A stretch of 64,000 bases of DNA from Patescibacteria group bacterium (GTDB taxonomy: Bacteria > Patescibacteriota > Patescibacteriia > UBA9934), in contig JBAZXR010000001.1 in assembly GCA_041659765.1 (NCBI GenBank), positions 44,537 to 108,536 on the forward strand. Direction: 5' to 3'. The notes under the pieces are model-generated. The model saw only the letters and a program-made list of their open reading frames with translations. It searched no databases and had not been told where the DNA came from. Below are positions 3,181-61,325 of this stretch, in pieces (within the stretch, counting starts at the first letter, position 1; every line of letters begins with the position of its first letter). Made by a program: the position numbers and the translations under genes.

Positions 3181-3218
3181 CTTGTGGTAGAGTATTAATG
3201 TTTACCTTTGGAGGAAAC

Positions 3219-3488
3219 GTGGCAGAGTATCAATTTACCGTTGATCGGACCCTGGAGTTTGGCCGGGGTACAACCCGGCCACCGCCTAGGTTGGCAGCGT
3301 CGTCTGAGTTCATGGCCGCAGTGCATGTTTTGACCTTTCGGGTTACGGCCCTCGGGTGGGAGCACGCTTACATAGAGCGTCTACTGCATCGCCAGGTCTT
3401 TGACCAGCGGGAAGAGCGCGTGGTTGAGGCGTGGAAGAAAGTCCGCGTGGTGGGCGCAAACGTGCTTTCGGAGCAAGCTCCACTGTGA
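3219..3488 (+). CDS. Hypothetical protein (89 aa) in a GC-rich patch; coding status uncertain
   Basis: GTG start 5 nt after GGAGG; the ORF ends just before the hup hairpin terminator. No recognisable family. Could instead be a noncoding structured region. Confidence 0.3.
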   Translation: MAEYQFTVDRTLEFGRGTTRPPPRLAASSEFMAAVHVLTFRVTALGWEHAYIERLLHRQVFDQREERVVEAWKKVRVVGANVLSEQAPL

Positions 3489-3507
3489 ATACCGTTGTCA
3501 GAACGTA

Positions 3508-3541
3508 AAAGTCCCGCACCATTCTACAGGCGCGGGACTTT
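3508..3541. terminator. Hairpin terminator between convergent genes (serves hup on the minus strand)
   Basis: AAAGTCCCGC...GCGGGACTTT 10-bp stem; U-tract on the minus strand. Confidence 0.55.
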
Positions 3542-3553
3542 CTAAATTTGTTT

Positions 3554-3871
3554 TTAGGAGGCGTTAGCTACTGGTGCCGACTTACTCATGTTGGTCTTCT
3601 TTAAAGCGTCCTTCAGACCCTTACCAGCTTTGAACTTAGGCACGCGGACTTCTGGCACACGGATCTTTTCCGTTGGGTTCCGTGGGTTCACGCCCATGCG
3701 AGCGGAACGTGTGCGAGCAGAGAAGGTACCGAAGCCAGCAATCGTTACTTCATCGCCTGCTACGAGCGCCTGCACAACTAGCTGTTCAAAGTTCTCAATG
3801 AGATCTTCGGCTAGCTTTTTAGGGATATCCAAGCGCTCTGAGAGCTTAAGGGACAGTTCAGCTTTGTTCAT
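3554..3871 (-). CDS. hup: DNA-binding protein HU
   Basis: 105 aa; GFGTFSARTR...RNPRTGE-like arm motif of HU/IHF family. Confidence 0.85.
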   Translation of the reverse strand: MNKAELSLKLSERLDIPKKLAEDLIENFEQLVVQALVAGDEVTIAGFGTFSARTRSARMGVNPRNPTEKIRVPEVRVPKFKAGKGLKDALKKTNMSKSAPVANAS

Positions 3872-3912
3872 AATGCGCTTATGTTAGCGGAGTATGAGAA
3901 TGCCGTCAAGTA

Positions 3913-5439
3913 TTACCTAGCAAACTCGATTACCCGAGTCTCGCGGATAACGGTCACTTTGACCTCGCCTGGGTAGGTCAGCTCGCTTTCAATCTTCTTA
4001 GCAATATCGCGAGCCAGCTCATGGGCCTTGAAGTCATCTATCTCGCCCGGCTGAACGAATACACGCACTTCACGGCCCGCCTGAATGGCGTAGGCCTTCT
4101 CAACTCCTGGGAAGCCAGCGGCCGTCATTTCCAGGTTCTGGAGGCGTTGGAGGTACTCTTCTACAGAGTTACGGCGAGCACCCGGGCGAGCGCCTGAGAT
4201 GGCGTCAGCGGCTTTCACAACCACGCCCTCGATGGTTCTTGGTTTGTCCTCATGATGAGCGATTGACTGGTAGCACAGCTCCTCTGGAAAGCCGAACTTT
4301 TTCATGATGTTGTAACCAATCTGTGGATGAGAACCCTGCATGTCATGGTCAACGGCCTTGCCAATATCATGGAATAACCCGCCTTTCTTGAGCGGGAAGG
4401 GATCCATGCCGAGCTCCTCGCCGATCATGCCGGAGATGCGGGCAACCTCGATTGAGTGCTGGAGTACGTTCTGTCCGTAGCTCGTGCGGTACTTGAGGCG
4501 ACCAAGGATAGAGACGAGCTTAGGATCGATCGATGAAACAGGAATGCCGAGCTCGTACAACGCATCTTCACCGGCTTTCTTCATTTCTTTAGCTAGGTCG
4601 TTCTTGGATTCTTTAACGGCATCTTCAATCTTAGCTGGTTGGATTCGACCATCTTTCATTAGGATCTCGAGCGCGCGCTTGGCTACTTGGCGGCGAACGG
4701 GGGAGAAGCCGGAGATGGTGATCATGCCCGGAGTGTCGTCAACGATAAGTTCACAGCCCGTGAGGTGCTCAATTGCTTTAATGTTGCGGCCTTCTTTGCC
4801 GATGATACGACCCTTAAAGTCCTCGGACGGGAGATCGACGAACGTGGTGGCAGAATCTACGACCTGGCTCGACGCAAAACGCTGAATAACAAGAGAGAGC
4901 ACTTTGCGTGCGTGGTTCTCTAGTTCTTCTTCTGTGTGCTGGTCGTACTTGCGGATCAAGCTCATGAGCGCATCCTGCTTGTCTTCTTCAACTCGCTTCA
5001 TGATCACTTCGAGTGCTGCCTCTTTACCCATGCCAGCCACTTCCTCAAGTTTCAATTCGGCAGCTTGGCGAACCTCGTCAATCTTGGCCTTAGCAGCCTC
5101 AAGCTTGCCTTTATAGTCATCAAGCTGGAGCTTGCGAGTCTCAAAATCCAAGAGCGTCTTATCAAAAAGCTGCTCGCGGTCAGCGAGACGGTCATGCATG
5201 GACTTAACGTCACGTTCCTTAACTTGCAACTCCTTTTTGCCCTCCTCAACGTAGGCCAGGGCCTTCTCTTTAGCCTCAATGATGATTCGTTGTTCCTGTT
5301 CTTTAGCCTGTTCTAATACTTTTACAGCACGTGCCTCGGCGGAGTTTGTTTGATTTTTGACAATGTTGGCGCGGATTAAATATCCACCAAGACTACCAAG
5401 GATCAACCCCCCGAGAGCAAGAATAAGGGGGATAAGCAT
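3913..5439 (-). CDS. rny: Ribonuclease Y
   Basis: 508 aa; N-terminal TM, coiled coil, KH (GRIIGKEGRNIKAIE) and HD domains. Confidence 0.9.
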   Translation of the reverse strand: MLIPLILALGGLILGSLGGYLIRANIVKNQTNSAEARAVKVLEQAKEQEQRIIIEAKEKALAYVEEGKKELQVKERDVKSMHDRLADREQLFDKTLLDFETRKLQLDDYKGKLEAAKAKIDEVRQAAELKLEEVAGMGKEAALEVIMKRVEEDKQDALMSLIRKYDQHTEEELENHARKVLSLVIQRFASSQVVDSATTFVDLPSEDFKGRIIGKEGRNIKAIEHLTGCELIVDDTPGMITISGFSPVRRQVAKRALEILMKDGRIQPAKIEDAVKESKNDLAKEMKKAGEDALYELGIPVSSIDPKLVSILGRLKYRTSYGQNVLQHSIEVARISGMIGEELGMDPFPLKKGGLFHDIGKAVDHDMQGSHPQIGYNIMKKFGFPEELCYQSIAHHEDKPRTIEGVVVKAADAISGARPGARRNSVEEYLQRLQNLEMTAAGFPGVEKAYAIQAGREVRVFVQPGEIDDFKAHELARDIAKKIESELTYPGEVKVTVIRETRVIEFAR

Positions 5440-5468
5440 AATTTAGTTCTACGAGATCGGTCTTACGC

Positions 5469-6134
5469 CTAGGAGGGTAACACGGGAGAGGTCAGCTCGC
5501 CAAGCGTTTTTGCAGAGGTTACTGAAAATTCCCCGATTTTCGTTCGGCGAAGGCTTGAAACATATCCAGTTGTCCCCAGGAGTATCCCCAGGTCTCTCGC
5601 GAGCGCGCGAATGTAGGTGCCAGACGAACAGAAGATGCGAACCTTGATCATGACTGGCCAGGTCGTTAAATTCGGCTCGCCGAGCAACTCGAAGGAGTGA
5701 ACCGTGAGCTGTCGCGGGGCGACTTCGATGGTCTTTCCTTGACGGGCTAGATTATAGAGTTTTTGTCCGCCGACCTTAATGGCCGAGTGCATGGGGGGGA
5801 TTTGTGAGATTTCGCCGGTCAGCTTTTTCATGGCATCGAGGATCATCTGTTGGTCGATAGAGACAGCAGGCGAGGGAATGACGGCCCCTTCTGGGTCGAG
5901 CGTGTCCGTAGTTGCCCCAATTACAAACTCGGCCTCGTATTCCTTATCCATACCAAGATATGTCGAAAGCTGTTTGGTACAGTCCCGGCCCACGCCCACG
6001 ATTAAAAGCCCTGTGGCAAAGGGGTCGAGCGTGCCGGCATGGCCAACAGTCCGTTCGCCAGTGATTTTGCGGACTTTGTCGACGACATCATGAGAGGTGA
6101 TACCGGCGGGTTTATCGATTAGGAGGAAGGGCAT
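5469..6134 (-). CDS. truB: tRNA pseudouridine(55) synthase TruB
   Basis: 221 aa; LLIDKPAGITSHDVV...HAGTLDP motif. Confidence 0.9.
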   Translation of the reverse strand: MPFLLIDKPAGITSHDVVDKVRKITGERTVGHAGTLDPFATGLLIVGVGRDCTKQLSTYLGMDKEYEAEFVIGATTDTLDPEGAVIPSPAVSIDQQMILDAMKKLTGEISQIPPMHSAIKVGGQKLYNLARQGKTIEVAPRQLTVHSFELLGEPNLTTWPVMIKVRIFCSSGTYIRALARDLGILLGTTGYVSSLRRTKIGEFSVTSAKTLGELTSPVLPS

Positions 6135-6231
6135 AGGATACGGTGGATTACGGTATTCGACTCTGAGCGCAGGCGAAGAGTCTAGAGGTGGGCTATTGGA
6201 TTCCGAGAGTATGCCAGACTTTCTAGAAATA

Positions 6232-6257
6232 ACGAGATCCGCCCCCGGAGGAGCGGA
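6232..6257 (-). terminator. Hairpin terminator downstream of the NUDIX gene
   Basis: AGATCCGC-ccccggagga-GCGGATCT 8-bp stem. Confidence 0.45.
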
Positions 6258-6276
6258 TCTTAGACGAGAGCGTTCT

Positions 6277-6744
6277 TTACCGCCATGCCATGTATAGCCG
6301 GGCGATATCGAGCGCGATATTCTGAAATTCTTTGTCCTTCGCCTTTTCCATGTTTACCCATTCAGCAGGCCCTTCTTCAGGGTCTTCCCTGCTGATCTGC
6401 CAATCGCCGTCTACTTCTGCGGTGTAGATCAGCAGATGGACGTGGTAGGCCTTTTGGGTTGGATCGTAGTATGCGAAGTTCTCGAACATCTTCCAGAAGT
6501 TCACATTTTTGAGCTTGAGGCCGGTTTCTTCGAAGACTTCCCGAACCACTGCGTGTCCGGCAGATTCACCGGGTTCGATCCCGCCACCCGGCAAGAACAA
6601 CTTGCCGGTAAGCTTCATACGTATCAATAGAAGCCGATGCCCGCGTCGGACGAGCGCATACGCACTCGGCCGGAACTCCAGCTCATCCACGGGAACCTCG
6701 ATATAGCCACCCAACACACGCACACACTGAACGGTCTTTCCCAC
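6277..6744 (-). CDS. NUDIX hydrolase
   Basis: 155 aa; Nudix box GGGIEPGESAGHAVVREVFEETGL. Confidence 0.8.
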   Translation of the reverse strand: MGKTVQCVRVLGGYIEVPVDELEFRPSAYALVRRGHRLLLIRMKLTGKLFLPGGGIEPGESAGHAVVREVFEETGLKLKNVNFWKMFENFAYYDPTQKAYHVHLLIYTAEVDGDWQISREDPEEGPAEWVNMEKAKDKEFQNIALDIARLYMAWR

Positions 6745-6816
6745 GTTTTCTCCAAAACAAGGCCTTTTTTGTACTGCTCTTTTACTGAACGGTCAATTGC
6801 GCTATTAATACCCGGT

Positions 6817-7365
6817 ATGACTTACAAAATAATTGTCTACGGTCTTCCTGGGGCGGGGAAGGATACGCAGTGCGAATTACTCGCCAATATTCTTGGAATT
6901 CCGCACTTTTCTACGGGGCAGATTTTGCGGGATGAGATTGCCAAGGGGAGCGAGCTAGGCCTGCTCGTAAAACCCTATGTCGAGTCTGGAACCATGATCC
7001 CCAAGGGCGTGGCCACTGACATCTACAAAGACAAACTATTGTCCCCAGAAATTCAGAAGAGTGGATATATTGTGAATGGTTACCCCAGATCTGTGGATTC
7101 GTTGAAGACATATCTCGAGTTCGAGAAGCCAACGCATTTTATTCACCTAATTATTCCTGACGAGCTGGCTCGCCAACGTCTATCTGCTCGTGGCCGAGGT
7201 GATGATGTCTCTGAAGTGATCGAAACCCGTCTTCGCCGCTATTACGAAACCGAGAAAGCGGCGGCGGATTATGCTCGAGAGCATTCGACGGTTCAATTTA
7301 TCGAAATCAGCAGCTCAGCCTCCCCGGATGAGGTCACTAAAGTGCTCCTCGAACGTCTTAAATAG
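6817..7365 (+). CDS. Adenylate kinase-family NMP kinase (second, non-canonical paralog)
   Basis: P-loop GLPGAGKDTQ and GYIVNGYPRS (GFPR-like) motif. Start set at the ATG at 6817, because the longer listed ORF overlaps the divergent NUDIX gene. TATTAA box 10 nt upstream. Confidence 0.7.
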   Translation: MTYKIIVYGLPGAGKDTQCELLANILGIPHFSTGQILRDEIAKGSELGLLVKPYVESGTMIPKGVATDIYKDKLLSPEIQKSGYIVNGYPRSVDSLKTYLEFEKPTHFIHLIIPDELARQRLSARGRGDDVSEVIETRLRRYYETEKAAADYAREHSTVQFIEISSSASPDEVTKVLLERLK

Positions 7366-7367
7366 CT

Positions 7368-8183
7368 ATGCCCGAGCTCCCAGAGGTAGAAACAATCAAG
7401 CGTCAATTGAATGAACGCTTGGCCGGGCGAGTCATTTCGGGCGTAGAAATCTGGAAGACTGGTCGGGAGACTCCAAGCGGGAAAAGATTCGAGAAGAAGG
7501 TGGTAGGTGGTCGGTTGTTGGCCGTTGGAAGAAGAGCAAAACTTTTGATTTTTAAATTTGCTGACGGGACGGCGATAATTGGCCACTTGAAGATGACGGG
7601 TAAGTTTTTGTTTGTTGATAAAAAATATATTAGGCAGAAACACGACCGAATACTTTTTGTATTCGACGGGGGCAAAGAGAGGGTGGTGTGGTCTGATGTG
7701 CGGACTTTTGGGTATCTGAAATATGTGTCGGCGAAGGGCCTTGAAGAGGTGCTGTCGAAGTATGGTCCAGAGCCACTCGAGACACCAGTTAAGGTACTTG
7801 CTGAGTGCTTGAAAACCCCGGCCTCAAGAACCGTCAAAGCTGCGCTGTTAAACCAGGAATGTATTGCTGGCGTGGGCAATATCTACGCGGATGAGGCCTG
7901 TCACCGGACCGGGATTAGACCCACTAGACGGCTTTCGACTTTGACCGAAAAAGATCGAGTAACTTTGATCAAGGAAGTGCAAAAGATTCTGCTCAAGTCG
8001 ATTGAGCTAAACGGGACCACCGCCAACGATTACGCGGATACTAATGGTGCTCAAGGCGGTTTTTCCGCTTTGTTAAAAGTTTATGGTCGCGAGCAAGAGC
8101 CATGTAAGAAATGTAAAACGCCAATTAAGAAAATAGCGCTGGCTGGACGCGGCACGCATTATTGTCCCAGCTGTCAGAAATAA
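7368..8183 (+). CDS. mutM: Formamidopyrimidine-DNA glycosylase
   Basis: 271 aa; N-terminal MPELPEVE, C-terminal zinc finger CKKC...CPSC. Confidence 0.9.
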   Translation: MPELPEVETIKRQLNERLAGRVISGVEIWKTGRETPSGKRFEKKVVGGRLLAVGRRAKLLIFKFADGTAIIGHLKMTGKFLFVDKKYIRQKHDRILFVFDGGKERVVWSDVRTFGYLKYVSAKGLEEVLSKYGPEPLETPVKVLAECLKTPASRTVKAALLNQECIAGVGNIYADEACHRTGIRPTRRLSTLTEKDRVTLIKEVQKILLKSIELNGTTANDYADTNGAQGGFSALLKVYGREQEPCKKCKTPIKKIALAGRGTHYCPSCQK

Positions 8184-8185
8184 GG

Positions 8186-8225
8186 ACACCGCCCGTCCCG
8201 TGCGCGGGAGGGCGGTGTTTGTTTC
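8186..8225 (+). terminator. Nested hairpin terminator after mutM
   Basis: ACACCGCCC...GGGCGGTGT stem with inner TCCCG/CGGGA, then TTGTTTC. Confidence 0.6.
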
Positions 8226-8680
8226 AGGCTTGAGCCTGATGTGCGGCTTCGATGGGGTCTACCGCTTCGGAGCGCGGAGCGGCGGGGTAGAGGTTTTCCA
8301 TTTCGCGCTTGAGCTTCTCGAGGACTTTGGTGAACAGGTCTTCCACCACGAACGGCACCTGGAGTTCCAGTCCGTCCTTAGCCCTGGCTTCGTCCTTCAG
8401 GTATCGGCTGATGCCGGGGCCGGATTGGTAGGCCAGGCCGCGGATGAGTTCGTCCCAGGCTTTCTTCACGCATTCATCGGAGAACTGATCGGTGGTGTCC
8501 AGACGCCAAGAGGTGATTTGGACTTCGCGGCCGTTCCAGTTGAAGCTGAGTTCCTGCAGGTAGACGGGCTTTTGGTCTCCTTTGTGTTCGAAATAACCCT
8601 GGTGGACTGAGGCCGAGCCTTCGACCTTGTGGGAGTGGTCGATTGTTTCGGAGAATGCAGACACGGAGAGCGGTGGCATG
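8224..8680 (-). CDS. Hypothetical protein (152 aa), GC-rich island gene
   Basis: ATG preceded by GAGGAG; local GC about 60% against a 45-50% background; no recognisable family. Confidence 0.45.
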
Positions 8681-8759
8681 GGACTCCTCGGGGGGGCGGG
8701 GACTCTATAACACAACACGGCCCCCGGTGAAAAGGGCCGTGCACGGTATGGTCGCGTGA

Positions 8760-9122
8760 TCACTTGAGGATGTCCGCTGCGCGGTCACGCCTCTTTAAGA
8801 ACTGCCTGACCAGATCGATGATAGCGTTCTGGATTTCCATGACGCTGTCTGAGGCCCGTCGCCACATAAAATCGCTCTGGACGGTTTGGTTGACCACTTC
8901 GTCTGTCAGCCAGTCGGCAATGCCGCTGGGCGTTTCCTGGGGCCCGGATTCGAGAGTGATCTCATCCGACCCTGGGTCATCGGCATCGTATCCGTAGCAC
9001 AGGTCAATCATCTTCACTTTGGCGGCTGTTTGCTCCGGATTCACAAGGAGCGCACACATATACCGGCCGTCGCCGGCCGTGAACCGTTCTTCTTTGGGTT
9101 CGCTGTCGGGGTCGTCAGGCAT
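8760..9122 (-). CDS. Hypothetical acidic protein (120 aa), GC-rich island gene
   Basis: ATG preceded by AAAGGAGG; co-oriented with and immediately upstream of the 8224-8680 gene. Confidence 0.45.
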   Translation of the reverse strand: MPDDPDSEPKEERFTAGDGRYMCALLVNPEQTAAKVKMIDLCYGYDADDPGSDEITLESGPQETPSGIADWLTDEVVNQTVQSDFMWRRASDSVMEIQNAIIDLVRQFLKRRDRAADILK

Positions 9123-9165
9123 GGTGCCTCCTTTGTGGTTCCACCTTAACCTTAGCGAAAAATCC

Positions 9166-9171
9166 GGTATA
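9166..9171 (+). promoter_or_regulatory. Consensus -10 box TATAAT upstream of the 9172/9181 ORF
   Basis: ggTATAATgcaacatATG; no SD, which suggests a leaderless transcript. Confidence 0.4.
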
Positions 9172-9678: not shown

Positions 9679-9716
9679 CTTTTGACGGAAAGACCACTTT
9701 CGACTACTATCTTGGC

Positions 9717-11741: not shown

Positions 11742-11746
11742 ACTCT

Positions 11747-12058
11747 ATGGAGCTCACTACAGCGAACTTTGATTCACAGATCACGCAGTCTACAACCCCA
11801 GTTGTCGTTGATTTCTGGGCCGTTTGGTGCGGACCATGCAAAGTCATGGGTCCACTCATTGATGAACTCGCCGCAGAAATGCCCGAGGTCTCCTATGCCA
11901 AAGTGAACGTGGATGAGAACTCCGAACTCGCTATGCGTTTCAACGTTCTCTCCATTCCCACCTTTGTGGTCATGAAGGGCGGCAGCGAGGTTGGCCGGTT
12001 TTCCGGAGCGATGAGTAAGGATGCGTTCAAGGAGAGAGTGAAACAAATCACGGGTTAG
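11747..12058 (+). CDS. trxA: Thioredoxin
   Basis: 103 aa; WCGPC active site. Confidence 0.9.
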   Translation: MELTTANFDSQITQSTTPVVVDFWAVWCGPCKVMGPLIDELAAEMPEVSYAKVNVDENSELAMRFNVLSIPTFVVMKGGSEVGRFSGAMSKDAFKERVKQITG

Positions 12059-12070
12059 TTATATTCCAAC

Positions 12071-12094
12071 CGCGCCCCGCAAGGGGCGTTTTTG
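12071..12094 (+). terminator. Intrinsic terminator after trxA
   Basis: CGCCCC-GCAA-GGGGCG followed by TTTTT. Confidence 0.7.
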
Positions 12095-12156
12095 GTTGAC
12101 GAAAGTCATTTTTTACTATTCAATGCTTCAGCATTTCCTGCGCTGGAGGTTTTACA

Positions 12157-12599
12157 TGCATCAAGCAGAAGGCTTTGACGGTCCTGTCCAACCGAAAGGA
12201 ACGCTTTTCGTGTTGGAGTCATTGTATCGGGCACATGGTGCTGAGGTGATGAGCGACTACATCATGGGAAGAGTGCGTCTTGGGGTGGGTCTTCGGCAGG
12301 CCGAGACACCTGAGGAATTCGCTACGGTTCTTCCGGCTTGGCGAGGCTGTCTGCTTCCTCCATCGACGTCGAGGTCGAGCTGGCGGTTTTGCAGACCCGA
12401 GCTCAAGCAGGGAAAATCGGATTCGCGTTATGGACGGTGGTTCTTCGGATCTTCTGTCTCGTACTTTGGGGTGTTGCGCGGGTTTTCCGGGTATCTCACT
12501 TGGACTCACCGCACCGGGGATTCTATTGGAGCGGGGATTCTGTGGGAGGAAGGTTGCTCTCCCGATCACGAATTTGCTTGGGAGATGTTCGGCTCATGA
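12157..12599 (+). CDS. Hypothetical protein in a GC-rich 550-bp unit; alternatively a structured noncoding RNA
   Basis: ATG 6 nt after GGAGG; stop 14 nt before a hairpin+T8 terminator. The second half is W/R/G/S-rich and not protein-like. Overlapping ORFs in three other frames are a low-stop-density artefact of the GC-rich sequence. Confidence 0.3.
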
Positions 12600-12612
12600 T
12601 CCATGACGTTCG

Positions 12613-12648
12613 CCTCAAGTCTTCGGACCTGGGGCGTTTCTTTTTTTT
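12613..12648 (+). terminator. Intrinsic terminator (hairpin + T8)
   Basis: CCTCAAGTC-TTCG-GACCTGGGG followed by CGTTTCTTTTTTTT. Confidence 0.55.
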
Positions 12649-12652
12649 GTTC

Positions 12653-12690
12653 ACAGTAAGGGTCGACGCATGGGTCGACCCTTACTGTGA
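12653..12690. repeat. Perfect 16-bp palindromic hairpin (CACAGTAAGGGTCGAC / GTCGACCCTTACTGTG); the central 22-mer recurs inside leuS
   Basis: Read directly: arms at 12653-12668 and 12675-12690 with a 6-nt loop. Confidence 0.7.
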
Positions 12691-12712
12691 GTAGTGCTAA
12701 ACTCCCTTCACT

Positions 12713-13636
12713 ATGGATCATCAATCTCTTGTCATCATCGGTTCTGGACCGGCGGGGTATACGGCAGCTATTTATGCGGCCCGAGCTATGCTTAAGCCGG
12801 TTTTATTTGCGGGGCGTGAACCCGGAGGCCAGCTCATGCTGACGAGCGAAGTGGAGAATTGGCCAGGCGAGCCGACCGGGGTGATGGGGACAGACCTCAT
12901 GGAGAAGCTGAAGAAGCAGGCTGAGAGATTTGATACGGTGATTTTCCAGGACGTGATTACGTCCGTAGATTTTTCGTCGAAACCTTTCACATTGAAGAGT
13001 GAAGGTGGCAAAGAGATGACAGCTGACGCGGTGATTATATCGACGGGCGCATCTGCGAAGTGGATCGGTTGTCCTGGTGAGCGAGAACTGCAGGGCAAAG
13101 GTGTTTCCGCTTGCGCCACCTGTGATGGCTTCTTCTTCCGCGGCAAGGAGATCGTCGTGGTCGGCGGAGGAGACTCGGCCATGGAAGAAGCGAACTTTTT
13201 GACCAGGTTTGCTTCCAAGGTAACGGTGATCCACCGCAGCGAATCATTCCGAGCCAGCAAGATCATGCTCGAACGCGCGCAGCAGAACCCGAAGATTTCC
13301 TTCATCATGGATACTACGGTAGAGGAAGTTCTCGGCGAAGAGAGCATTCGGGCGCTTAAACTCAAGAACACAAAGACCGGAGAAGTGAGCGAATTTCTGA
13401 CACAAGGGTTATTCGTGGCCATTGGCCACAAGCCGAATACGGAGTTATTTGTCGGCACCGTCACGCTCGACCAGAAGGGTTATATTGTGACGGAGGGTAA
13501 ATCTACAAAAACAAATATCCCCGGCGTGTTTGCGTGTGGAGATGTGATGGATCCGTATTACCGGCAGGCCGTTACGGCCGCGGGAACTGGGTGTATGGCG
13601 GCGCTAGAGGCAGAGCGGTTTTTGGCGGGGCACTAG
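12713..13636 (+). CDS. trxB: Thioredoxin reductase
   Basis: 307 aa; GSGPAGYTAAIYAARA, redox-active CATCDG. Confidence 0.9.
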   Translation: MDHQSLVIIGSGPAGYTAAIYAARAMLKPVLFAGREPGGQLMLTSEVENWPGEPTGVMGTDLMEKLKKQAERFDTVIFQDVITSVDFSSKPFTLKSEGGKEMTADAVIISTGASAKWIGCPGERELQGKGVSACATCDGFFFRGKEIVVVGGGDSAMEEANFLTRFASKVTVIHRSESFRASKIMLERAQQNPKISFIMDTTVEEVLGEESIRALKLKNTKTGEVSEFLTQGLFVAIGHKPNTELFVGTVTLDQKGYIVTEGKSTKTNIPGVFACGDVMDPYYRQAVTAAGTGCMAALEAERFLAGH

Positions 13637-27780: not shown

Positions 27781-27871
27781 ATGGAGCTAGTGTACGGCAT
27801 CTGTTCGGCTGCGCAAAGAAGCGTGGAGAACTCGGCGAATGTTCGCATAACATTGGTATACTGAAGTAAAT

Positions 27872-30800
27872 ATGCCTGAACCATGGTTGCCTTTTTTTGC
27901 AAATCATCGGCTTCACAGAATCATTCTCCTGATTCTCGTAGCAATTACGGTGCCGATGCTCAGTGTCTCGCTTTTTCTGAATCAAGTGTTGGCGGTCACT
28001 CGGACTTGGGATGGCGGGGGGACTGACGGAACATGCGGAGGCGGGGCAGGGGACGGTAATAAATGGTCCTGTGCGGCTAACTGGTCTGCGGACACGGTTC
28101 CTGTTTCCGGAGATGTCGTGGTTTTTGACGGGACGTCTACCAAGGATTCAACTATTGATGCTGGTTTTGCAGGGACCATCACTAGCTTGAGTATTAATTC
28201 TGGTTACACCGGAACGATTACCATGGCGCGTTCGTTAACGATGACGAGCACATATACCCAAGCCGACGGTACATTTTCGCAGGGTGCTCAGACACTCACC
28301 ATAGCCGGCAATTTTGCTCACACCGCCGGTACATTTAACGCAAATACCGGAACTGTCGTTTTGACTGGGGCAACCCCGACACTTTCTGGATCCACGACAT
28401 TTAACAATTTGTATGTAGCTACCACCACCACTAGTGATGTCACGCTAACTTTGCCAGCTTCGACTACTACAGTAGTTTCAGGTGCAACGCGATTGCTGGC
28501 GAGCACGCACAGTGATCCAGTGGTGAATATCCTGACAATTGTCAGCAGTTCCTCGGGTGTCCAGGCGAGTGTGGACTTTCAAGGAAGCCTCACGATTTTT
28601 TCGGCGCACGTGAAGGACGTTAACAACATTAACGCTACGCAAGTCCACTGTTATGTTGATTGTGTTGATGACGGAAACAATACGAATATTCGTTTTGGCG
28701 AGCCGGGGCTAGCTCGGACCACGGTTTCTGGCAATGTGACTGAAGCTGGGTCAACCGCCACATTTACCGTGGCGCTTCGTGGCAAGCCAACGGCGAACGT
28801 CATCGTTCCGCTTTCGGTGTCTGACGCTACGGAGGCAAGCGTGTCACCAGCCTCGCTGACGTTCACCGCTTTAAATTACACTACTCCGCAGACGGTGACC
28901 GTTACAGGAGTTGACGACTCAGAGGATGACGGGGGAGTCTCTTCGACAATTGTCTTTGGCACAGCTACTAGCGTGGATTCGCTGTATGGGGTATTGGATG
29001 CTTCGGATGTATCTATTTTTACCGAGGATGATGATCAGCTGGCTGCGCTCGTTGATTTTGATAATGCGGCCTTGTTAACGGAAGAAGACGTGAAGGGAAC
29101 AGCCGTTTGGTTTGATCAGACAAACCAGGGCGAGGGCACATTGAAAACCGGCAGCGGCGGAGCGGCGGTGAGTCTTACCGGAACAAAAATACTTCCAGGT
29201 TGCCGCGCGACTATTGGCGGAGTAGATTTCATTATTTCTCGTTTAAGTCCCACGGTGACTGGCCAGGTACTTTTAACTGATGGTGTGACTCGTCCTGAGA
29301 ATCTTCATCTGGTGTTGGCTGACGGAGCCGTTACAAAAATTGTTTGCACTATAAAGCCGGTGAATGATGTTCAATTAGGGGGTAGTTCATCAAGCATCGC
29401 GGTTCGAAGCACATTGTTTCCAGGCAGCGGTTACACGGAGGGGCGGGTTTTTACTGACAATACGAATGGACGTGTGTGGTTTACACAAACGAACTCCTTG
29501 CCTGCGCTGAAAGGGATTTCTATGACGACCGGGCTTGAGACCATCAGTACGGCGCTGACGGGAGAAACTGGTAATGCTGTAATCAGCCATGACTCTACGC
29601 GTGACACGTTGTGGCTTTCCGAGTATGCCTTAAACAAAGTTGTAGCTATTAATGCAGCCACGGGTGCGTACGCGTTTGGAACGCTCGGCGCGAGTAGTTT
29701 TACTATCGCTGGTTCCCCGTGGTCGATAGCCTATAACCCTGAGTTAGACGAAATTTGGGTTCTAACAAACGACGGCCATGAGGTAAAAAGAATCAATCCT
29801 GCTGATGGAGCGGTGGTCGGCACCGTGGCGCTCAGTTTTAGTCCTAATAGAATAGTTTATGACTCTACCCAGCATGCCATGTGGGTTGAAGTTGATAATA
29901 CGTACAGCAGCTCACTTATAAAATTATCAGCCACTTCTGGTACTTTTGCGAACGTAACTGAGTCTGCAAGTTTGTTTCCGGTGCCGGATGTTTCCGCCAG
30001 CGATTACGGCAGCCTGCTTTATGACTCATCGAGGAATGTTCTTTGGGAGACGTCATATCGGGAGGCCGATGGTGTTGATAAACTGAACAAGATTGACGCC
30101 TCTACGGGAGCCGTGATCGGCTCGTATCCAACCGGTGCGTTCACTAATGCGGCCGCCCTGGATCCTGTAACCGGCAATGTGCTCGTCGCGTACTCAAATT
30201 ATGTTACCCCGCCCGCAGAGGGCGGTTCGGCTGGCGTAATGGAGTTTGACGCGGCTACGGGAGAACGGATCGCTACCTACACATCGTCTACCGGTCTCGT
30301 TCAGAGTATGGCGCGCGGAACAGGGAATATCAACTGGATTCTTGACATTATTGAGAATGAACTGAGTCAATCCGTTATCGGCGGTGCGCCAGTCGGGAAG
30401 TTTTATACCACGCTTACTACATCTTCTTCTGATGTAGATATTGCGAGCGGCTCAACTCTTTCCTCGGTTTCTGCCTCGGCAAGCGAGGCCGGAGAAATTG
30501 TTTCTTTTGCCCTCACCTTTGATGGCGGAAACAGTTACAAGGTTTATGGTTCATGGCGCGTGATCGCTTCTAATAAAGCAGGAGACCACGGAGGTACTGA
30601 CGGTGTTTGGTATTACCGGGATGATGCGGACGCATGGACAGCTGCACCGAGCAATGCTCCGGCCGAAGCAGTATCTCTGGCTGTAGAAAACGGCCCGACA
30701 CATAACCGTATGACGGCCGGTACGTTAAACGGTTTGGGTGAAGATATTTTTCAGCAGGCTGGCGGTTTCTCAACCTCCACTACTTCTGTCGGGGTTTCGG

Positions 30801-51098: not shown

Positions 51099-51099
51099 T

Positions 51100-52284: not shown

Positions 52285-52292
52285 ATTGCCAT

Positions 52293-52694: not shown

Positions 52695-52695
52695 T

Positions 52696-53430: not shown

Positions 53431-53443
53431 CTGACCCTGTCCT

Positions 53444-53854: not shown

Positions 53855-53855
53855 T

Positions 53856-54044: not shown

Positions 54045-54045
54045 T

Positions 54046-54300: not shown

Positions 54301-54305
54301 GCCCT

Positions 54306-54677: not shown

Positions 54678-54687
54678 TCCATCTACT

Positions 54688-55020: not shown

Positions 55021-55022
55021 TT

Positions 55023-55580: not shown

Positions 55581-55583
55581 CCT

Positions 55584-55769
55584 ATGGCAACAACGAACCA
55601 AATTGCTAAGTCCAAGAAGACGCCTAAGTTCATGACCCGCCACGTACTACGGTGCTGGCGCTGTGGCCGAAAGCGTTTCTTCATGCGGGACTTCGGCTTG
55701 TGCCGCATCTGTTTCCGTGAACTTGCAAACGTGGGCGAGATCCCAGGCATTCGGAAAGCTAGCTGGTAA
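55584..55769 (+). CDS. rpsZ: 30S ribosomal protein S14 type Z (zinc-binding)
   Basis: 61 aa; CWRCGRKRFFMRDFGLCRICFRE. Confidence 0.9.
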   Translation: MATTNQIAKSKKTPKFMTRHVLRCWRCGRKRFFMRDFGLCRICFRELANVGEIPGIRKASW

Positions 55770-55774
55770 TCCTA

Positions 55775-56169
55775 TGATGACAGACCCAATCTCAGACATG
55801 CTCACCCGCATCCGCAACGCCGCCATGGTGAAAGCGGAGGTGGTCACCATGCCCCTCTCACAAATGAAATTCGCTTTGGCGAAGATTCTAGAGAGCGAGG
55901 GCTTCCTTCAGGCTGTCAGCCGGGAGGAGCAGGGCGGACGCCCCATCTTGAAGGTGGAGCTTCGCTATGAACCGAATGGTTCACCCCGCGTCTCGGACTT
56001 GAAGCGCATTAGTAAGCCAGGCCGCCGTGTTTATGTGAAGGCGACTGAGCTGACTCGTGTCCGTTCAGGTTTTGGTATTGCGATTCTTTCAACCCCGAAC
56101 GGACTCATGACGAGCGACGAGGCAAAGAAACGGCATTTGGGCGGAGAACTTATTTGCGAAATTTACTAA
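55775..56169 (+). CDS. rpsH: 30S ribosomal protein S8
   Basis: MMTDPISDMLTRIRNA. Confidence 0.95.
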
Positions 56170-56170
56170 T

Positions 56171-56728
56171 ATGTCGCGAATCGGCAAAAAACCAGTTTTC
56201 CTCCCCGCCGGTGTAACCGCGGAGATCGCAAACGATAAAGTTACTGTAAAGGGTCCAAAGGGGGCTTTGACCTTGGCTCTTCACGCTCACGCTCACGTGG
56301 CCCAGTCTGCTGATAGCACTGGCATGGCTCAGCTTGATGTTACGGTGAATGATCCGGAGAATGACGACCGAGCCATCTGGGGTACCATGCGCGCACTTCT
56401 GAATAAGATGGTGAAGGGCGTGACTGAAGGCTACGCTAAGACACTCGAGCTCAATGGAGTTGGTTTCAAGATGAACTTGAAAGGCAAGGGACTCCTCATG
56501 TCACTTGGCTTCTCCCATGACGTAGAATACGAATTGCCAGAAGGCGTCGTAGCTAAGATCGAGGGGAACGTTCTGACGCTGTCCGGCATTGACGCGGAGG
56601 CAGTCGGTCGAGCAGCGGCAGAGATTCGCTCGCTCAAGAAGCCGGAACCATATAAAGGAAAAGGCTTTAAGTACTCTGACGAAGTGATTCGTCGTAAGGC
56701 TGGAAAGGCTGCGAAGAGCGAGAAATAA
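56171..56728 (+). CDS. rplF: 50S ribosomal protein L6
   Basis: MSRIGKKPV. Confidence 0.95.
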
Positions 56729-56732
56729 GCAT

Positions 56733-57092
56733 ATGACCCCAAAGAACATCCAAAAAAAGCGTGCACAGGCTGAACGCCGCGCTATCCGCACTCGCGCTAA
56801 GATCTCCGGAACCACGGAGCGACCGCGCTTGTCTATCTTCCGATCTTCTAAGCACATGAGTGCTCAGGTTATTGATGATACAAAGGGCAAGACTTTGGCC
56901 TCTGCTTCTGATCTGAAGATGGATGCCAAGAAGACAGGCCTGGAATTAGCGGCGATGGTTGGCCAGGAAGTGGCCGCCAAAGCCAAGGCTGCCGGCATCA
57001 CGAAAGTCGTTTTTGATAAAGGCCAATTCCGTTTCCACGGGCGCGTAAAGGCGCTCGCTGAGGCGGCTCGTGAAGGCGGACTTGTATTCTAA
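56733..57092 (+). CDS. rplR: 50S ribosomal protein L18
   Basis: 119 aa L18 family. Confidence 0.9.
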
Positions 57093-57096
57093 TCCT

Positions 57097-57747
57097 ATGG
57101 AAGAACCAACAAAAATTGTTACTCCAGTAGTTGCTCCGGCTCCTGCCGGACAAGCTCCTCGCACGACTGATCGTCGCGGACCTCCGCAGCGCGGTGGTGC
57201 TGGTGCTGGCCGTGGTGGTCAGGGTCAAGGTGGTCGGGGCGGAGATAGCCGCGGACGCGGACCTCGCACCGGTGGCCGCCCAGAACGTGAACCACGCGAA
57301 TTCGAGCAGAAGATTCTAGAACTTGTTCGCGTTACTCGCGTGACCAAGGGCGGTAAACGCATGCGTTTCCGCGCCTCTATTATCATCGGCGACCGTCGTG
57401 GTCGGGTGGGCTTTGGCGTAGCAAAGGGTGTTGACGTGGCTATGTCTGTAGAGAAAGCTTTCCGTCAGGCTAAGAAGAACATGATCACAGTGCCGCTCGT
57501 CAACGAGACTATTCCGCACGAGGTATATAGCAAGTACGCCGCAGCTAAAGTGCTTTTGAAGCCAGCACCTAAGGGTACTGGACTCAAGAGCGGCGGCCCG
57601 ACCCGCATGGTGCTTGAACTGGCTGGTGTTCCGAACGCAGTTTCTAAGCTTCTTGGAGCCAAGAACAAGATCAACAGTGCTAAGGCCACCTTCTTGGCAC
57701 TCAGTGCTTTGAAAATGCCTCTGCCAAAGGAGAACGCAAAGAAATAA
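57097..57747 (+). CDS. rpsE: 30S ribosomal protein S5 with ~75-aa Arg/Gly-rich (RGG-type) N-terminal extension
   Basis: S5 core (ELVRVTRVTKGGKRMRF) preceded by PPQRGGAGAGRGGQGQGGRGGDSRGRGPRTGGRPE. Confidence 0.9.
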   Translation: MEEPTKIVTPVVAPAPAGQAPRTTDRRGPPQRGGAGAGRGGQGQGGRGGDSRGRGPRTGGRPEREPREFEQKILELVRVTRVTKGGKRMRFRASIIIGDRRGRVGFGVAKGVDVAMSVEKAFRQAKKNMITVPLVNETIPHEVYSKYAAAKVLLKPAPKGTGLKSGGPTRMVLELAGVPNAVSKLLGAKNKINSAKATFLALSALKMPLPKENAKK

Positions 57748-57748
57748 T

Positions 57749-58183
57749 ATGGCAATTACTCTATCTAATTTACGCTCAGCTAAGGGTGCTCGCGCCCTGC
57801 CTAAGCGTGTAGGCCGCGGTCTTGGTTCTAAGGGAACCACCGCCGGTCGTGGTCAGAAAGGTCAAAGCTCTCGCTCCGGCGTGGGTGGACTTAAGCGTCT
57901 TGGTATGCGCCACACGCTGTTGGCCACTCCAAAGAAGCGTGGCTTCACGTCTTTGAGCGAAAAGCTGGTGTCTGTGAATATCGGCGAGCTCGAGAAGAAA
58001 ACAATTGCTAATGAAGTAGTTACTCCAAAGACACTCGTGGCTAAGGGATTGATTCCGAAGGGTTCTCACGCAGCTAAGATCCTGGGCGGTGGTGAGTTGA
58101 CGCACGCGATTGTGGTCAAGAACTGCGAGGTTTCAAAATCCGCAGCCGAGATGATCGCGAAGTTGGGCGGAAAGATTGAGTAA
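57749..58183 (+). CDS. rplO: 50S ribosomal protein L15 (directly follows rpsE; no rpmD/L30 gene)
   Basis: LSNLRSAKGARALPKRVGRGLGSKGTTAGRGQKGQ. Confidence 0.95.
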   Translation: MAITLSNLRSAKGARALPKRVGRGLGSKGTTAGRGQKGQSSRSGVGGLKRLGMRHTLLATPKKRGFTSLSEKLVSVNIGELEKKTIANEVVTPKTLVAKGLIPKGSHAAKILGGGELTHAIVVKNCEVSKSAAEMIAKLGGKIE

Positions 58184-58191
58184 CCATTCTT

Positions 58192-59466
58192 TTGAACGGT
58201 ATGAACGTATTCCTGCGGATCCTGAAGACGAAAGAGCTCCGGAACGGTCTGCTCTTCATGCTCCTCTGTGTCACGGTATTCCGTATTGCCGCGCACATTC
58301 CGGTGCCGGGGATTGATTCGTCCGGTCTTGAATCTCTTCTGGCAGGAAACCAGTTTCTTGGGCTTTTGAACGTTTTTTCCGGCGGCACGCTGACGAGCTT
58401 TTCGATCGTGGCGCTTGGTGTTGGTCCCTATATCACGGCATCCATCATTTTCCAGCTGCTCGGAATGATTTTTCCGTCTGTAGAGGAAATGCAACAGGAA
58501 GAACAGGGTAGACAGAAGATTAACCGCTGGACGCGTTTGCTGACGGTTCCGCTTTCGTTCCTTCAGGGCTACAGCATCCTGAAGCTTCTTCAGCAGTCCA
58601 GCGCATCGCTCGGAACTCAGCTGACCTTCTCTACCATGGATTATTTGCTCGCCATGCTTTCCATGATGGCTGGGACGATTTTTCTTATGTGGTTGGGGGA
58701 GCTTATCAGCGAGCGCAAGATGGGGAACGGTCTTTCGATCATGATTTTCTCCGGTATTATTGCTTCCATGCCAGGTTTTGTGGCGAAATCGTTTGCGGCG
58801 AGCACCAGCGCGGACACGACGAATATTATTCTCTTCGTGGCGTTGACGCTCGTGACGGTTATTGGCGTTGTCTACGTGAGCGAGGCCGTGCGTAACTTGC
58901 CGGTGCAATATGCCCGCGGTGGTGGCGCAGGTTCAACCGTGAACTCGTCCTTGCCACTCCGTATCAACATGGGCGGTATGATTCCTATTTTGTTTGCCCT
59001 CTCCTTGATTGTGCTTCCTCCGCTTGTGGCGCAGTTCTTTGTGAATGCTCGAACGGAGATCATACAGCAGATTGCTACACAGACCGTCACGCTTTTTGGG
59101 AACAATTTGTTCTACGGAGTTGTTTACTTCATTCTAGTGTTTTCCTTCACCTTCTTCTATTCATCGGTGGTGTTTAAGCCAGAGCAGGTGGCCGAGAACC
59201 TCCAGAAGCAGGGTGGATTCATCCCCGGTGTTCGGCCCGGAGAGCAGACGGCTAAGTATCTCCAGTGGGTCACTAATCGTCTCTTGCTGATTGGCGCGCT
59301 TTTCTTGAGCATAATCGCGGTTCTCCCAGTCTTCATGCAGGAAATCACCGGTACTCAGAATCTGGTGGTTGGCGGTTCGTCCGTCATCATCGTTGTGTCT
59401 GTCATTGTCGATATGGTGAAACAGGTTGAGGCTCAGCTGACCATGCGTAGCTACGACAACAAGTAA
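58192..59466 (+). CDS. secY: Preprotein translocase subunit SecY
   Basis: 424 aa; 10 TM helices; SecY signature. Confidence 0.95.
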   Translation: MNGMNVFLRILKTKELRNGLLFMLLCVTVFRIAAHIPVPGIDSSGLESLLAGNQFLGLLNVFSGGTLTSFSIVALGVGPYITASIIFQLLGMIFPSVEEMQQEEQGRQKINRWTRLLTVPLSFLQGYSILKLLQQSSASLGTQLTFSTMDYLLAMLSMMAGTIFLMWLGELISERKMGNGLSIMIFSGIIASMPGFVAKSFAASTSADTTNIILFVALTLVTVIGVVYVSEAVRNLPVQYARGGGAGSTVNSSLPLRINMGGMIPILFALSLIVLPPLVAQFFVNARTEIIQQIATQTVTLFGNNLFYGVVYFILVFSFTFFYSSVVFKPEQVAENLQKQGGFIPGVRPGEQTAKYLQWVTNRLLLIGALFLSIIAVLPVFMQEITGTQNLVVGGSSVIIVVSVIVDMVKQVEAQLTMRSYDNK

Positions 59467-59472
59467 TATGGA

Positions 59473-59501
59473 AGCAGCCCTTCAGGGCTGTTTTCTTTTT
59501 T
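59473..59501 (+). terminator. Intrinsic terminator after secY
   Basis: AGCAGCCC-TTCA-GGGCTGTT followed by TTCTTTTTT. Confidence 0.65.
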
Positions 59502-59532
59502 ACTATTAGCAGTTATCATCCCCCAGTAGCTT

Positions 59533-60084
59533 ATGCATAGAATATTCATCTTGGGGCCGCAGGGGAGTGGGAAGGGGACGCAGGCCAAGAAATTGTCAGC
59601 CTTCCTCGGGATACCGTACCTATCCATGGGCGATCTTTTGAGAGAAGAGGCAAAGGGAGAGGGCGAGCTTTCTCAAAAGGTGCGGGCAATCGTGGAGACT
59701 GGTAGTTTAGTATCGGACGTTGTGGCTGAAGCAGTACTCAGGAAGCGTTTGGCAGAGCCGGATGTGGCGAATGGATATATTTTGGACGGCTTCCCGCGGA
59801 ACTTTGAACAGATGAAGGCGTTTGTGGGATTTGATCAACCAACAGCAGTTATCGTGATCGACATACCAAAGCGTGAATCACGGGCTCGCTTACAGAACCG
59901 AGCAATCACGGAAGGCCGCACGGATGACACACCAGAGGTCATCGAGAAACGACTCGGCATCTATAGTACAGATACCGTTCCGATTATTGAGGAATACAAG
60001 AAGCTTGGTGTCGTGCGAGAAGTTGACGGGATGGGAACCATTGAAGAAGTAGCTGAGAGAATTCAACGGCTTTTTGTTTTATAG
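59533..60084 (+). CDS. adk: Adenylate kinase
   Basis: GPQGSGKGTQA P-loop; GYILDGFPRN. Confidence 0.9.
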   Translation: MHRIFILGPQGSGKGTQAKKLSAFLGIPYLSMGDLLREEAKGEGELSQKVRAIVETGSLVSDVVAEAVLRKRLAEPDVANGYILDGFPRNFEQMKAFVGFDQPTAVIVIDIPKRESRARLQNRAITEGRTDDTPEVIEKRLGIYSTDTVPIIEEYKKLGVVREVDGMGTIEEVAERIQRLFVL

Positions 60085-60087
60085 GGT

Positions 60088-60156
60088 CTACGAATGTTCT
60101 CGTAAAAATTTGGAGTCGGGTTACCTCCTAACAAATTTTTCCGAAAACATTCTTCG
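60088..60156. repeat. Intergenic hairpin repeat copy 5 (loop GGAGTCGGGTTACCTCCTAACA)
   Basis: Arms CGAATGTTCTCGTAAAAATTT / AAATTTTTCCGAAAACATTC (2 mismatches); lies between adk and map. Confidence 0.8.
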
Positions 60157-60174
60157 CCCCTAACCAATACCAAT

Positions 60175-60957
60175 ATGGCGCTAATCAAAACTGCAGAAGA
60201 AATCCAGGCGATGCGTGAGGGCGGGGCGTTGCTATCAAAGGCGCTTCAGGCCGCGGTAGACATTGTGAAGCCGGGCGTGACGATGCGACAGCTCGACGAT
60301 ATTGCTCGAAAGACTATTGAAGATGGTGGCGGAAAACCGTCATTCTTGGGGTATAAAGGCGGTAACAAAATCCCGTTCCCTTCGACTGTTTGCATCTCGG
60401 TTAATGAAGAAGTTGTCCACGGGGTAGGCTCGCGCGAGATAGTGCTAAATGAAGGCGACATTGTCGGACTCGACATTGGCTGTTGGTATAAAGACATGTG
60501 TACAGATATGGCTGTGACGGTACCGGTTGGAAATATTTCTAAGGAACTCAAGGAGCTTCTCCATGTTACTCGAGATTCAATGCGTGCCGGTGTTGAAGCA
60601 GCTAAGGTTGGCGGAGTAGTGCGTGACATCAGCCAGGCTGTTGAAGGCGCGGTGAACCAAAAGAAGTATGGAATTGTTAAGGCGTTGGTCGGCCATGGCG
60701 TAGGACATGCGGTACATGAATCGCCACACGTGCCGAATTACGTCGATAGCTCCTTTCCGAAGACGGCGCTTAAAGAAGGAATGTGTTTGGCTATTGAGCC
60801 TATGTTGACGCTCGGGACTGATGACGTAGTTACCGCGAAAGATGGTTGGACGATTGTTACCGCAGACAATTCACTCGCTGCGCATTTTGAGGTGACCATC
60901 GCACTGCTTCCAGGCGGCCCAGAAGTATTGACGCCAGAGCCTACCGTCAAGATCTAA
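60175..60957 (+). CDS. map: Methionine aminopeptidase type I
   Basis: 260 aa; metal-binding D, D, H, E, E residues in the pita-bread fold. Confidence 0.9.
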   Translation: MALIKTAEEIQAMREGGALLSKALQAAVDIVKPGVTMRQLDDIARKTIEDGGGKPSFLGYKGGNKIPFPSTVCISVNEEVVHGVGSREIVLNEGDIVGLDIGCWYKDMCTDMAVTVPVGNISKELKELLHVTRDSMRAGVEAAKVGGVVRDISQAVEGAVNQKKYGIVKALVGHGVGHAVHESPHVPNYVDSSFPKTALKEGMCLAIEPMLTLGTDDVVTAKDGWTIVTADNSLAAHFEVTIALLPGGPEVLTPEPTVKI

Positions 60958-60961
60958 AAAA

Positions 60962-61325
60962 GAAGAGGTCCCTTCGGGGTTTAAACCCGAAGGGACCTGA
61001 GATGCACCCTATCCTGCGCTGGCCAGCGTCCAAGATTTCTACGATATCTATTCGTCCCCATCCCATCGAATTGGCACCCGATGGACGTGTGGACGGAGAT
61101 GATCCTGCGGGCCCGGGTGTGGGGGACCCATCCTCTTTATGAGATTTTGAGCTGAGTACCGGCGGCACTCGAAGCTGGCCGATCTCGACCCCTGTTGTCT
61201 TTGCGTTAAGACTGACAGGAGCTCGCCTCCACGGGGGATGTCCGTGTTTTTTCCCTTGCAATCACTCCGACTCTCCATGCGGGAACCAGGATTGACTGCA
61301 AATTGAGGCATTCACGATATGGTGA
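60962..61325 (-). ncRNA. Candidate unassigned transcript (~360 nt, GC-rich): TTGACA-17-TAGCAT promoter at 61358-61330, terminated by the 60967-60997 hairpin; identity unknown
   Basis: Promoter and terminator read directly. A 104-aa TTG-initiated ORF with GGAG upstream overlaps it but reads through the terminator stem and has P/G/S/R-biased composition. No RNase P or tmRNA signature found by eye. Confidence 0.3.
60967..60997. terminator. Perfect 12-bp GC-rich hairpin (GGTCCCTTCGGG/CCCGAAGGGACC); U-tract on the minus strand, A-tract on the plus strand
   Basis: Read directly; functions as a terminator for minus-strand transcription coming from about 61320. Confidence 0.6.

Follow-up and report, generated by a model that had tools for sequence, protein, structure and literature searches.

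A candidate conserved RNA gene and two putative orphan small-protein genes in separate lineage-specific insertions of a Candidatus Uhrbacteria genome

What are the three short, GC-rich patches that lie between conserved genes in a 64,000-nucleotide (nt) stretch of a Patescibacteria genome (GenBank assembly GCA_041659765.1, contig JBAZXR010000001.1, positions 44,537 to 108,536; hereafter the window)? An initial annotation of this DNA had treated patch 1 (3190-3500), patch 2 (12100-12650) and patch 3 (60962-61325) as one phenomenon, either structured RNAs or decayed foreign genes. The explanation that we favor, and that as a whole we hold to be somewhat more probable than all others together, is that the patches are unrelated lineage-specific insertions between conserved housekeeping genes, each with its own expression signals, and that patch 3 holds a conserved gene for a non-coding RNA of ~330 nt without a match among known families. 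For patches 1 and 2 the most likely reading is that of small orphan genes for proteins of 89 and 147 amino acids (aa). The proposed setting is a Candidatus Uhrbacteria genome of ~0.9 Mb with three unrelated insertions. The patches do not belong together: searches with patch 3 by nhmmer and by covariance model match nothing in patches 1 and 2, and a common origin or family was rejected in view of this lack of mutual similarity.

The proposed gene in patch 3, including its promoter, covers 60958-61358 on the minus strand. Its predicted transcribed region (60958..61326) consists of a body of ~325 nt (~61323-60999) followed by a terminator, and ~420 nt separate the gene map from an open reading frame (ORF) of 68 aa. 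The ancestral order in relatives is map, the 68-aa ORF, DUF7282, RuvX and RecO, with the map stop codon 1-12 nt from the next start. This short gap, without patch 3, was found in L082, L085, L162, L163/164, L165, L166/167, L168 and the contig of P0015 (L numbers denote related loci, P numbers proteins). Besides the window, L161 has the insertion, in a gap of 450 nt to which no gene is assigned, and so has L169, a short contig whose start already lies within the element. Alignment over the whole element placed these homologues at 5820-6181 of L161 and at 1-243 of L169 (partial), both on the minus strand. The distribution is consistent with an insertion at the precise junction of map (stop codon) and the 68-aa ORF (start), which took place before a narrow clade diversified; the element would since then have been retained by purifying selection.

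Of the other copies, that of L161 is closest to the window RNA gene, at 79% identity and with 12 indels (3, 1, 2, 13, 1, 1, 4, 1, 1, 2, 1 and 4 nt), most of which are not multiples of 3, and the mismatches have no 3-periodicity in any ungapped block. The same pair of sequences has mismatches at codon positions 1/2/3 of 20/13/134 in map, where about half of the third positions differ, 12/2/92 in adk and 5/4/20 in the 68-aa ORF. The patch 3 copies have no ORF in common, and the indels break the reading frames; the minus-strand ORFs of 87 aa and 104 aa in the window are not kept in L161. The coding score also indicates no preferred frame, and none of the frames is coding-like. Because of the 79% identity, the aperiodic changes and the absence of a kept ORF, patch 3 appears to be conserved far above the neutral level and not to encode a protein. 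Aperiodic substitutions, frame-breaking indels and the lack of a conserved ORF are the features by which bacterial small RNAs (sRNAs) are in general recognized as non-coding.

The near-consensus minus-strand promoter TTGACA-17-TAGCAT, which the initial annotation had assigned to patch 3, is present at 61358-61330, and a TG in front gives it an extended -10 element. In the window, L161 and L169 alike, TGCTAGCAT is kept, as is a -35 element of TTGACA or TTGACT. At the other end a predicted intrinsic terminator (60958..60998, minus strand) consists of a 13-bp stem (60998-60966) and a U-tract, which adjoins the map stop codon; the window and L161 both keep the stem, and one G-C pair has become A-U in the latter, a compensatory change. 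The other intrinsic terminators reported around the patches were likewise found, at 12072-12089, 12611-12648 and 3508-3552. A predicted promoter and Rho-independent terminator on the same strand, both conserved in homologues, characterize independently transcribed bacterial sRNAs, and on these sequence features patch 3 appears to be a new family within this group.

The -10 region ATGCTAGCAT (61329-61338) is a perfect palindrome and therefore the extended -10 TGCTAGCAT can be read on both strands, on the plus strand at 61331-61339. The region may act as a bidirectional promoter that also drives the 68-aa ORF, DUF7282, RuvX and RecO, which the patch 3 insertion may have cut off from the ribosomal-protein/map operon. 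Many Uhrbacteria have the conserved 68-aa ORF (61379-61585; core motif YDGGYEIRVG; no family) and the DUF7282 protein (61576-62028) downstream of map. As a rule these two overlap or adjoin their neighbors, and this arrangement implies that they are translationally coupled to the ribosomal-protein/map operon.

Next we consider the predicted secondary structure of the patch 3 RNA. The window RNA was folded without its terminator and compared with shuffled sequences, which gave z = -3.0 for the minus strand and -0.9 for the plus strand; the minus strand of L161 gave -2.3. The three sequences were also split at invariant blocks and the segments folded one by one (anchor-cut folding). This procedure produced the same helix layout in all copies, with about eight hairpins, several of which would hold their shape while the sequence changes. 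A 5' domain (61225..61309), predicted in all three copies, consists of a GCCUC/GAGGC helix with two hairpins inside it, a long variable one and CACGG/CCGUG (61246-61230), the C-rich loop of which reads ACAUCC, CAUCC or CGCUCCA. Hairpin H2 (61190..61221) has a different sequence in each of the three copies and is nevertheless retained in all of them; in six of its pairs both bases differ between the window and L161. It is followed by an invariant hairpin GUCG-AGAY-CGGC and by H4 (AGCU..GAGUG / UACUC AGCU), which together occupy 61149..61189; H4 has compensatory changes, for example C-G to U-A in L169. In H6 (61109..61129; GGGUCC(C)/GGG(A)CCC around the conserved loop ACACCC) the loop-adjacent pair C-G is swapped to G-C in L169, and the loop motif ACACC is common to all three copies. 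The remaining segment (61012..61107) folds into the long variable hairpin H7 (61107-61036), which forms from differing sequence in the window (-26.6 kcal/mol) and in L161 (-22.0 kcal/mol), and the conserved hairpin H8 (61035-61012; UCUUGGACGCU..AGCGCAGGA), with changes of U-G to U-A and A-U to G-C. All of these elements are on the minus strand. RNAalifold, applied to the window and L161, found 15 of 78 pairs altered on both sides, and the consensus energy was lower than in column shuffles (z = -2.6; 0 of 60 shuffles as low).

The comparison with Rfam did not reassign any of the patches to a known RNA. With the gathering threshold and the whole window as query, none of the 4227 Rfam 15 models matched the patches; this search and ARAGORN gave just two tRNAs, at 1338-1557, and the absence of RNase P RNA and tmRNA noted earlier is thus upheld. 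A relaxed search (E <= 10) of 60940-61400, 3090-3570 and 12050-12720 returned chance matches only, among them miRNA models and ctRNA_pGA1 on the terminator hairpin, and no match was obtained with L161 and L169 at E <= 5. Individual candidates for patch 3 were rejected on the same grounds. Bacterial RNase P RNA (type A/B) gave no covariance-model match, and the invariant blocks hold no P4-type motif; 6S RNA and signal recognition particle (SRP) RNA have no Rfam match here, and the predicted layout is multi-hairpin rather than a rod; the Rfam models of OLE, GOLLD, ROOL, HEARO and raiA did not match either. Patch 3 is like the last five in being a structured, conserved RNA without an assigned function. 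It differs from them in its far narrower distribution, three sequences of one clade, and in the absence of an IscB-type protein gene, and it is smaller than OLE, GOLLD and ROOL.

RsaE/RoxS and hairpins 7, 13 and 14 of Staphylococcus aureus RNAIII are examples of regulation by RNA in which C-rich apical loops pair with Shine-Dalgarno regions. The patch 3 RNA resembles these regulators in having a separate gene with a promoter and a terminator, in its multi-hairpin layout, in its restriction to a lineage and in its conserved C-rich loops (AUCC/CUCC and ACACCC). It differs from RsaE and RNAIII in that it has no similarity, by sequence or covariance model, to any Rfam family including theirs, a length of ~330 nt with eight helices, a Patescibacteria host and no encoded peptide. 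As the most likely mechanism we propose that patch 3 would be a trans-acting regulatory RNA, which would either pair through its C-rich loops with G-rich Shine-Dalgarno regions or bind a protein. There is also a small chance that patch 3 is the founding member of an undescribed class of structured RNA, that is, a mobile promoter-RNA-terminator cassette that inserts precisely between genes of essential operons, has a regulatory or ribonucleoprotein role in bacteria of minimal genome size and is distributed beyond the three copies. Searches for further copies or paralogues with nhmmer and the covariance model R1 (core, 97 positions), which covered the window and 170 related loci (1.96 Mb in total), recovered only the three seeds. 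The sole match in phages, plasmids and viral contigs, the last scanned with conserved motifs of patch 3, was one of 22 nt in L170 (6760-6785 of an IMG/VR contig), which is an exact copy of the invariant GUCGAGAUCGGCC-AGCUUCGAG block; with no extended similarity around it, it was rejected as chance. Searches of the full-text literature yielded no earlier description of sRNAs in Uhrbacteria or Patescibacteria.

Several results count against a structured regulatory RNA in patch 3. There are just three copies including the window, one of them partial (L169), and this fragment folded alone gives z = -0.6. The number of compensatory pairs on the MAFFT alignment, 14, is to be compared with 9 +/- 3 in shuffled alignments, and 3 of 60 shuffles reach 14. 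Sites complementary to the ACACCC loop (GGGTGTGG-like) are not enriched in the window, where no target was found. Covariation among two to three sequences is in any case supportive, not decisive, for the structure.

Patch 2 lies in the intergenic slot between trxA and trxB (654 nt, 12059..12712, plus strand), which is variable among relatives. The slot is nearly empty in L006, L007 and L008 (~30-70 nt) and holds unrelated cargo of 0.7-1.0 kb in L002, L003 and L004: an internally duplicated orphan of 291 aa with 58% GC in L002 (4008-5024), an AT-rich ORF of ~190 aa with 39% GC in L003 (538-1214) and a minus-strand ORF in L004 (569-1442). The extended -10 of trxB (GTGCTAnACT) is conserved throughout the slot variants. 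In the window, the slot contains the detected trxA terminator (12072-12089) and a possible promoter, TTGACG-17-TTCAAT, at 12096-12124. These are followed by the ORF of 147 aa (12156..12599, plus strand) with an ATG start and GGAGG at 12145-12149, and by a terminator (12611..12648, plus strand), in which the 11-bp stem contains a single mismatch and carries a UUCG loop, with a U-run behind it, and which is kept in L002 (CGCCTCGGGTCTTAATGACCTGGGGCG). The GGAGG-6-ATG arrangement reported earlier is correct, with the start at 12156 and not at 12157. Between this terminator and the trxB promoter there is a perfect 17-bp inverted repeat, CACAGTAAGGGTCGAC gcat GGGTCGACCCTTACTGTG (12652-12689), which is absent in L002.

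The patch 2 ORF and the L002 ORF share their ribosome binding site (RBS) and start context (TGGAGGTTT..ATG) as well as the downstream terminator. The 291-aa protein of L002 is an internal duplication (Smith-Waterman score of 65 vs 27 +/- 4 for shuffled sequences), and the C-terminus of the patch 2 ORF matches its repeat motif G[FY]L..G..W[DE]..P..[FY]AW (47 vs 30 +/- 4.7). A protein search with the L002 orphan matched only itself, and the protein family libraries had no match to it. From these similarities the patch 2 ORF may be a shortened, one-repeat version of the L002 slot orphan that is diverging fast or decaying.

Patch 1 is an insert of 371 nt (3183..3553, plus strand) between the ProRS terminator and the stop codon of HU. 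It is lineage-specific and absent from L001, where the gap from the ProRS terminator to HU is 31 nt, and from L004 and L005. A possible extended -10, TGGTAGAGT, with the pattern TGnTAnnnT is found at 3185..3193 (plus strand); the same motif, presumably a promoter element, also stands ahead of ProRS, trxB, tRNA-Arg and the patch 3 RNA. The ORF of 89 aa (3219..3488, plus strand) has a GTG start, and the GGAGG previously noted in front of it is confirmed at 3210-3214, four bases before the GTG. The insert ends with the hairpin AAAGUCCCGC/GCGGGACUUU (3508..3552), which works in both orientations on paper: it has runs of A and T at its sides, a minus-strand terminator site was detected at 3530-3513, and it can serve as a terminator for the plus-strand patch 1 ORF as well as for HU, which is on the minus strand. 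The hairpin is inside the insert and is absent from L001. The coding score of the ORF frame is -0.02 vs -0.27 and -0.30 in the other frames, and the GC content at the three codon positions (0.70/0.44/0.63) has a codon-like periodicity. AlphaFold2 with the single sequence gave a weakly confident alpha/beta model (pLDDT, the predicted local distance difference test, of 59). Patch 1 is a probable orphan small-protein gene on this sequence evidence.

The leaning toward orphan protein genes in both patches is thus based on the Shine-Dalgarno sites, the long open frames, the frame-specific scores (-0.065 for the patch 2 ORF vs -0.21) and the counterpart of patch 2 in L002. Lineage-specific orphan small genes annotated as hypothetical are frequent in the genomes of Patescibacteria, also called the candidate phyla radiation (CPR). 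The ORFs in patches 1 and 2 are like these in being short and without a family, in having a Shine-Dalgarno sequence and a terminator, and in being found in one genome between conserved genes; they stand apart from ordinary CPR orphans only by a GC content that is a little higher and, in the case of patch 2, by the slot with changing cargo. Pfam, NCBIfam, PHROG and PADLOC have no match for either ORF, and tblastn found neither in 1.9 Mb of related loci nor in phages and plasmids; no protein family and no purifying selection were seen through homologues.

A protein-coding role for these two patches also meets with contrary evidence. The patch 1 ORF has only itself (P0001, a JGI 'hypothetical protein') as a homologue in 5.8 billion protein clusters, and a search of 1.84 billion representative proteins with the patch 2 ORF (P0002) returned itself and P0003, a junk eukaryote-like repeat protein. 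Real genes have a mean coding score of 0.13 and a minimum of -0.06; both ORFs score at this lower limit and also inside the range of spurious ORFs (-0.10 +/- 0.11). Patch 2 has no GC periodicity, and the AlphaFold2 model of its ORF from the single sequence has a pLDDT of 33. The link between patch 2 and L002 is weak, since 15 of 2000 shuffles score as high (p ~0.0075).

The source of the DNA bears on the question whether the patches are foreign. The relatives of RNase Y (3913-5439, minus strand) and of map are Candidatus Uhrbacteria and Patescibacteria genomes assembled from metagenomes. The RNase Y protein is 97% identical in L001, 92% in L002 and 89% in L003, with a DNA identity of just ~80-85%. 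By these relationships the source organism is a member of Candidatus Uhrbacteria (Patescibacteria), a small groundwater bacterium, and not an episymbiont of the Saccharibacteria type. The GC contents of patches 1 to 3 are 56.3%, 53.4% and 55.8%, compared with a window mean of 51.6%; the earlier values of 58-62% were overstated. The patches are not exceptional in GC, because they fall on the 90th, 74th and 89th percentiles of same-size windows and none is an outlier. The statement that all frames stay open at once is wrong, as each frame of all three patches contains 1-9 stop codons. The initial annotation had further suggested transfer from a high-GC actinobacterial host. This idea lacks a starting point, because the organism is not a Saccharibacteria episymbiont and Candidatus Uhrbacteria are not known to live as episymbionts on Actinobacteria, and it finds no support in the small GC excess or in the searches for donors: phage and plasmid collections gave no match for any patch with blastn and tblastn, and 5.8 billion protein clusters gave none either. 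The GC content of the cargo in the trxA-trxB slot of relatives, which spans 39-58%, also counts against an actinobacterial origin.

Two other explanations concern patch 3. All three patches could be inert, decaying remnants of horizontally acquired foreign genes, in which the expression signals are leftover or due to chance. All of them are indeed lineage-specific and without a homologue in large protein collections, and patch 2 in particular has a weak coding score, no confident fold and an ORF half as long as its positional counterpart in L002. However, patch 3 is not in neutral decay, since its identity is as high as 79% between lineages in which ~51% of the third codon positions differ, its promoter and terminator are kept and its helices still pair. 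Searches of phages, plasmids and viral contigs revealed no donor, the patches exceed the window mean in GC by only a little, and patch 1 holds an open frame of 155 codons with a codon-like GC periodicity. Together, these results make it unlikely that the patches are remnants. It is very improbable that patch 3 is instead a highly divergent housekeeping RNA (RNase P RNA, 6S, SRP RNA or tmRNA) missed by the Rfam models. Its ~330 nt are near the size of RNase P RNA, a promoter and a terminator of its own are present, and none of these RNAs is found in the 64-kb window; but the relaxed searches of the window (E <= 10) and of L161 and L169 (E <= 5) gave no Rfam match, ARAGORN found no tmRNA, the P4-type motif of RNase P is missing from the invariant blocks and the multi-hairpin layout is unlike the 6S rod. 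Moreover, the gene is missing at this locus in about ten close relatives, and no other copy occurs in the 1.96 Mb searched.

The initial annotation had also considered the patches as structured RNAs of an undescribed kind. We retain this view for patch 3 only. That patches 1 and 2 are non-coding structured RNAs as well, with ORFs that are artefacts, is doubtful, and slightly more so than the decay of foreign genes just discussed. Each of the two has a promoter-like element and a terminator, the amino-acid composition is odd, the AlphaFold2 confidence is low to moderate, and patch 1 with its terminator included folds with z = -2.7. Patch 2, on the other hand, folds no better than its shuffles (z = -1.3). 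In both patches GGAGG precedes the start of the longest ORF at canonical spacing, and the frame of this ORF outscores the other two. The RBS/start context and the C-terminal motif of patch 2 recur in the 291-aa ORF of L002, which is too long for a chance opening in DNA of 58% GC, and neither patch resembles patch 3 or any Rfam family. Orphan protein genes remain our preferred reading of patches 1 and 2.

Other features of the window and of its relatives were seen in the course of the analysis. A fourth lineage-specific insert, with 57-59% GC, is located at 8183-8705 and is absent from L001 and L002; it has a minus-strand ORF of ~152 aa (ATG near 8680, end at 8224) with an ordinary protein composition and its own terminator-like hairpin. 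The motif TGnTAnnnT is found at 1826-1834, 12695-12703 and 27854-27862, where it ends 9 nt before the ATG codons of ProRS (1844), trxB (12713) and the gene at 27872, and at 1426-1434, ~11 nt ahead of tRNA-Arg. The distance of 9 nt between the extended -10 and these ATG codons suggests that many mRNAs are leaderless or nearly so. In L163 (1019-2796) and L164 (950-2727), in which map is 87% identical, two ORFs of 250 aa and 135 aa are inserted between secY and adk. The 135-aa ORF has a weak match to RVT_1 (reverse transcriptase); this is a further accessory insertion inside the ribosomal-protein operon.

The modestly GC-rich patches in such genomes appear to be mostly lineage-specific accessory cargo in intergenic slots and not evidence of transfer from a host. 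The non-coding RNAs of Patescibacteria/CPR are almost unexplored. The practical value of patch 3 is limited by its very narrow known distribution, yet it would provide a concrete candidate for a regulator that was gained recently and retained in a genome of ~0.9 Mb, in organisms with few known regulators.

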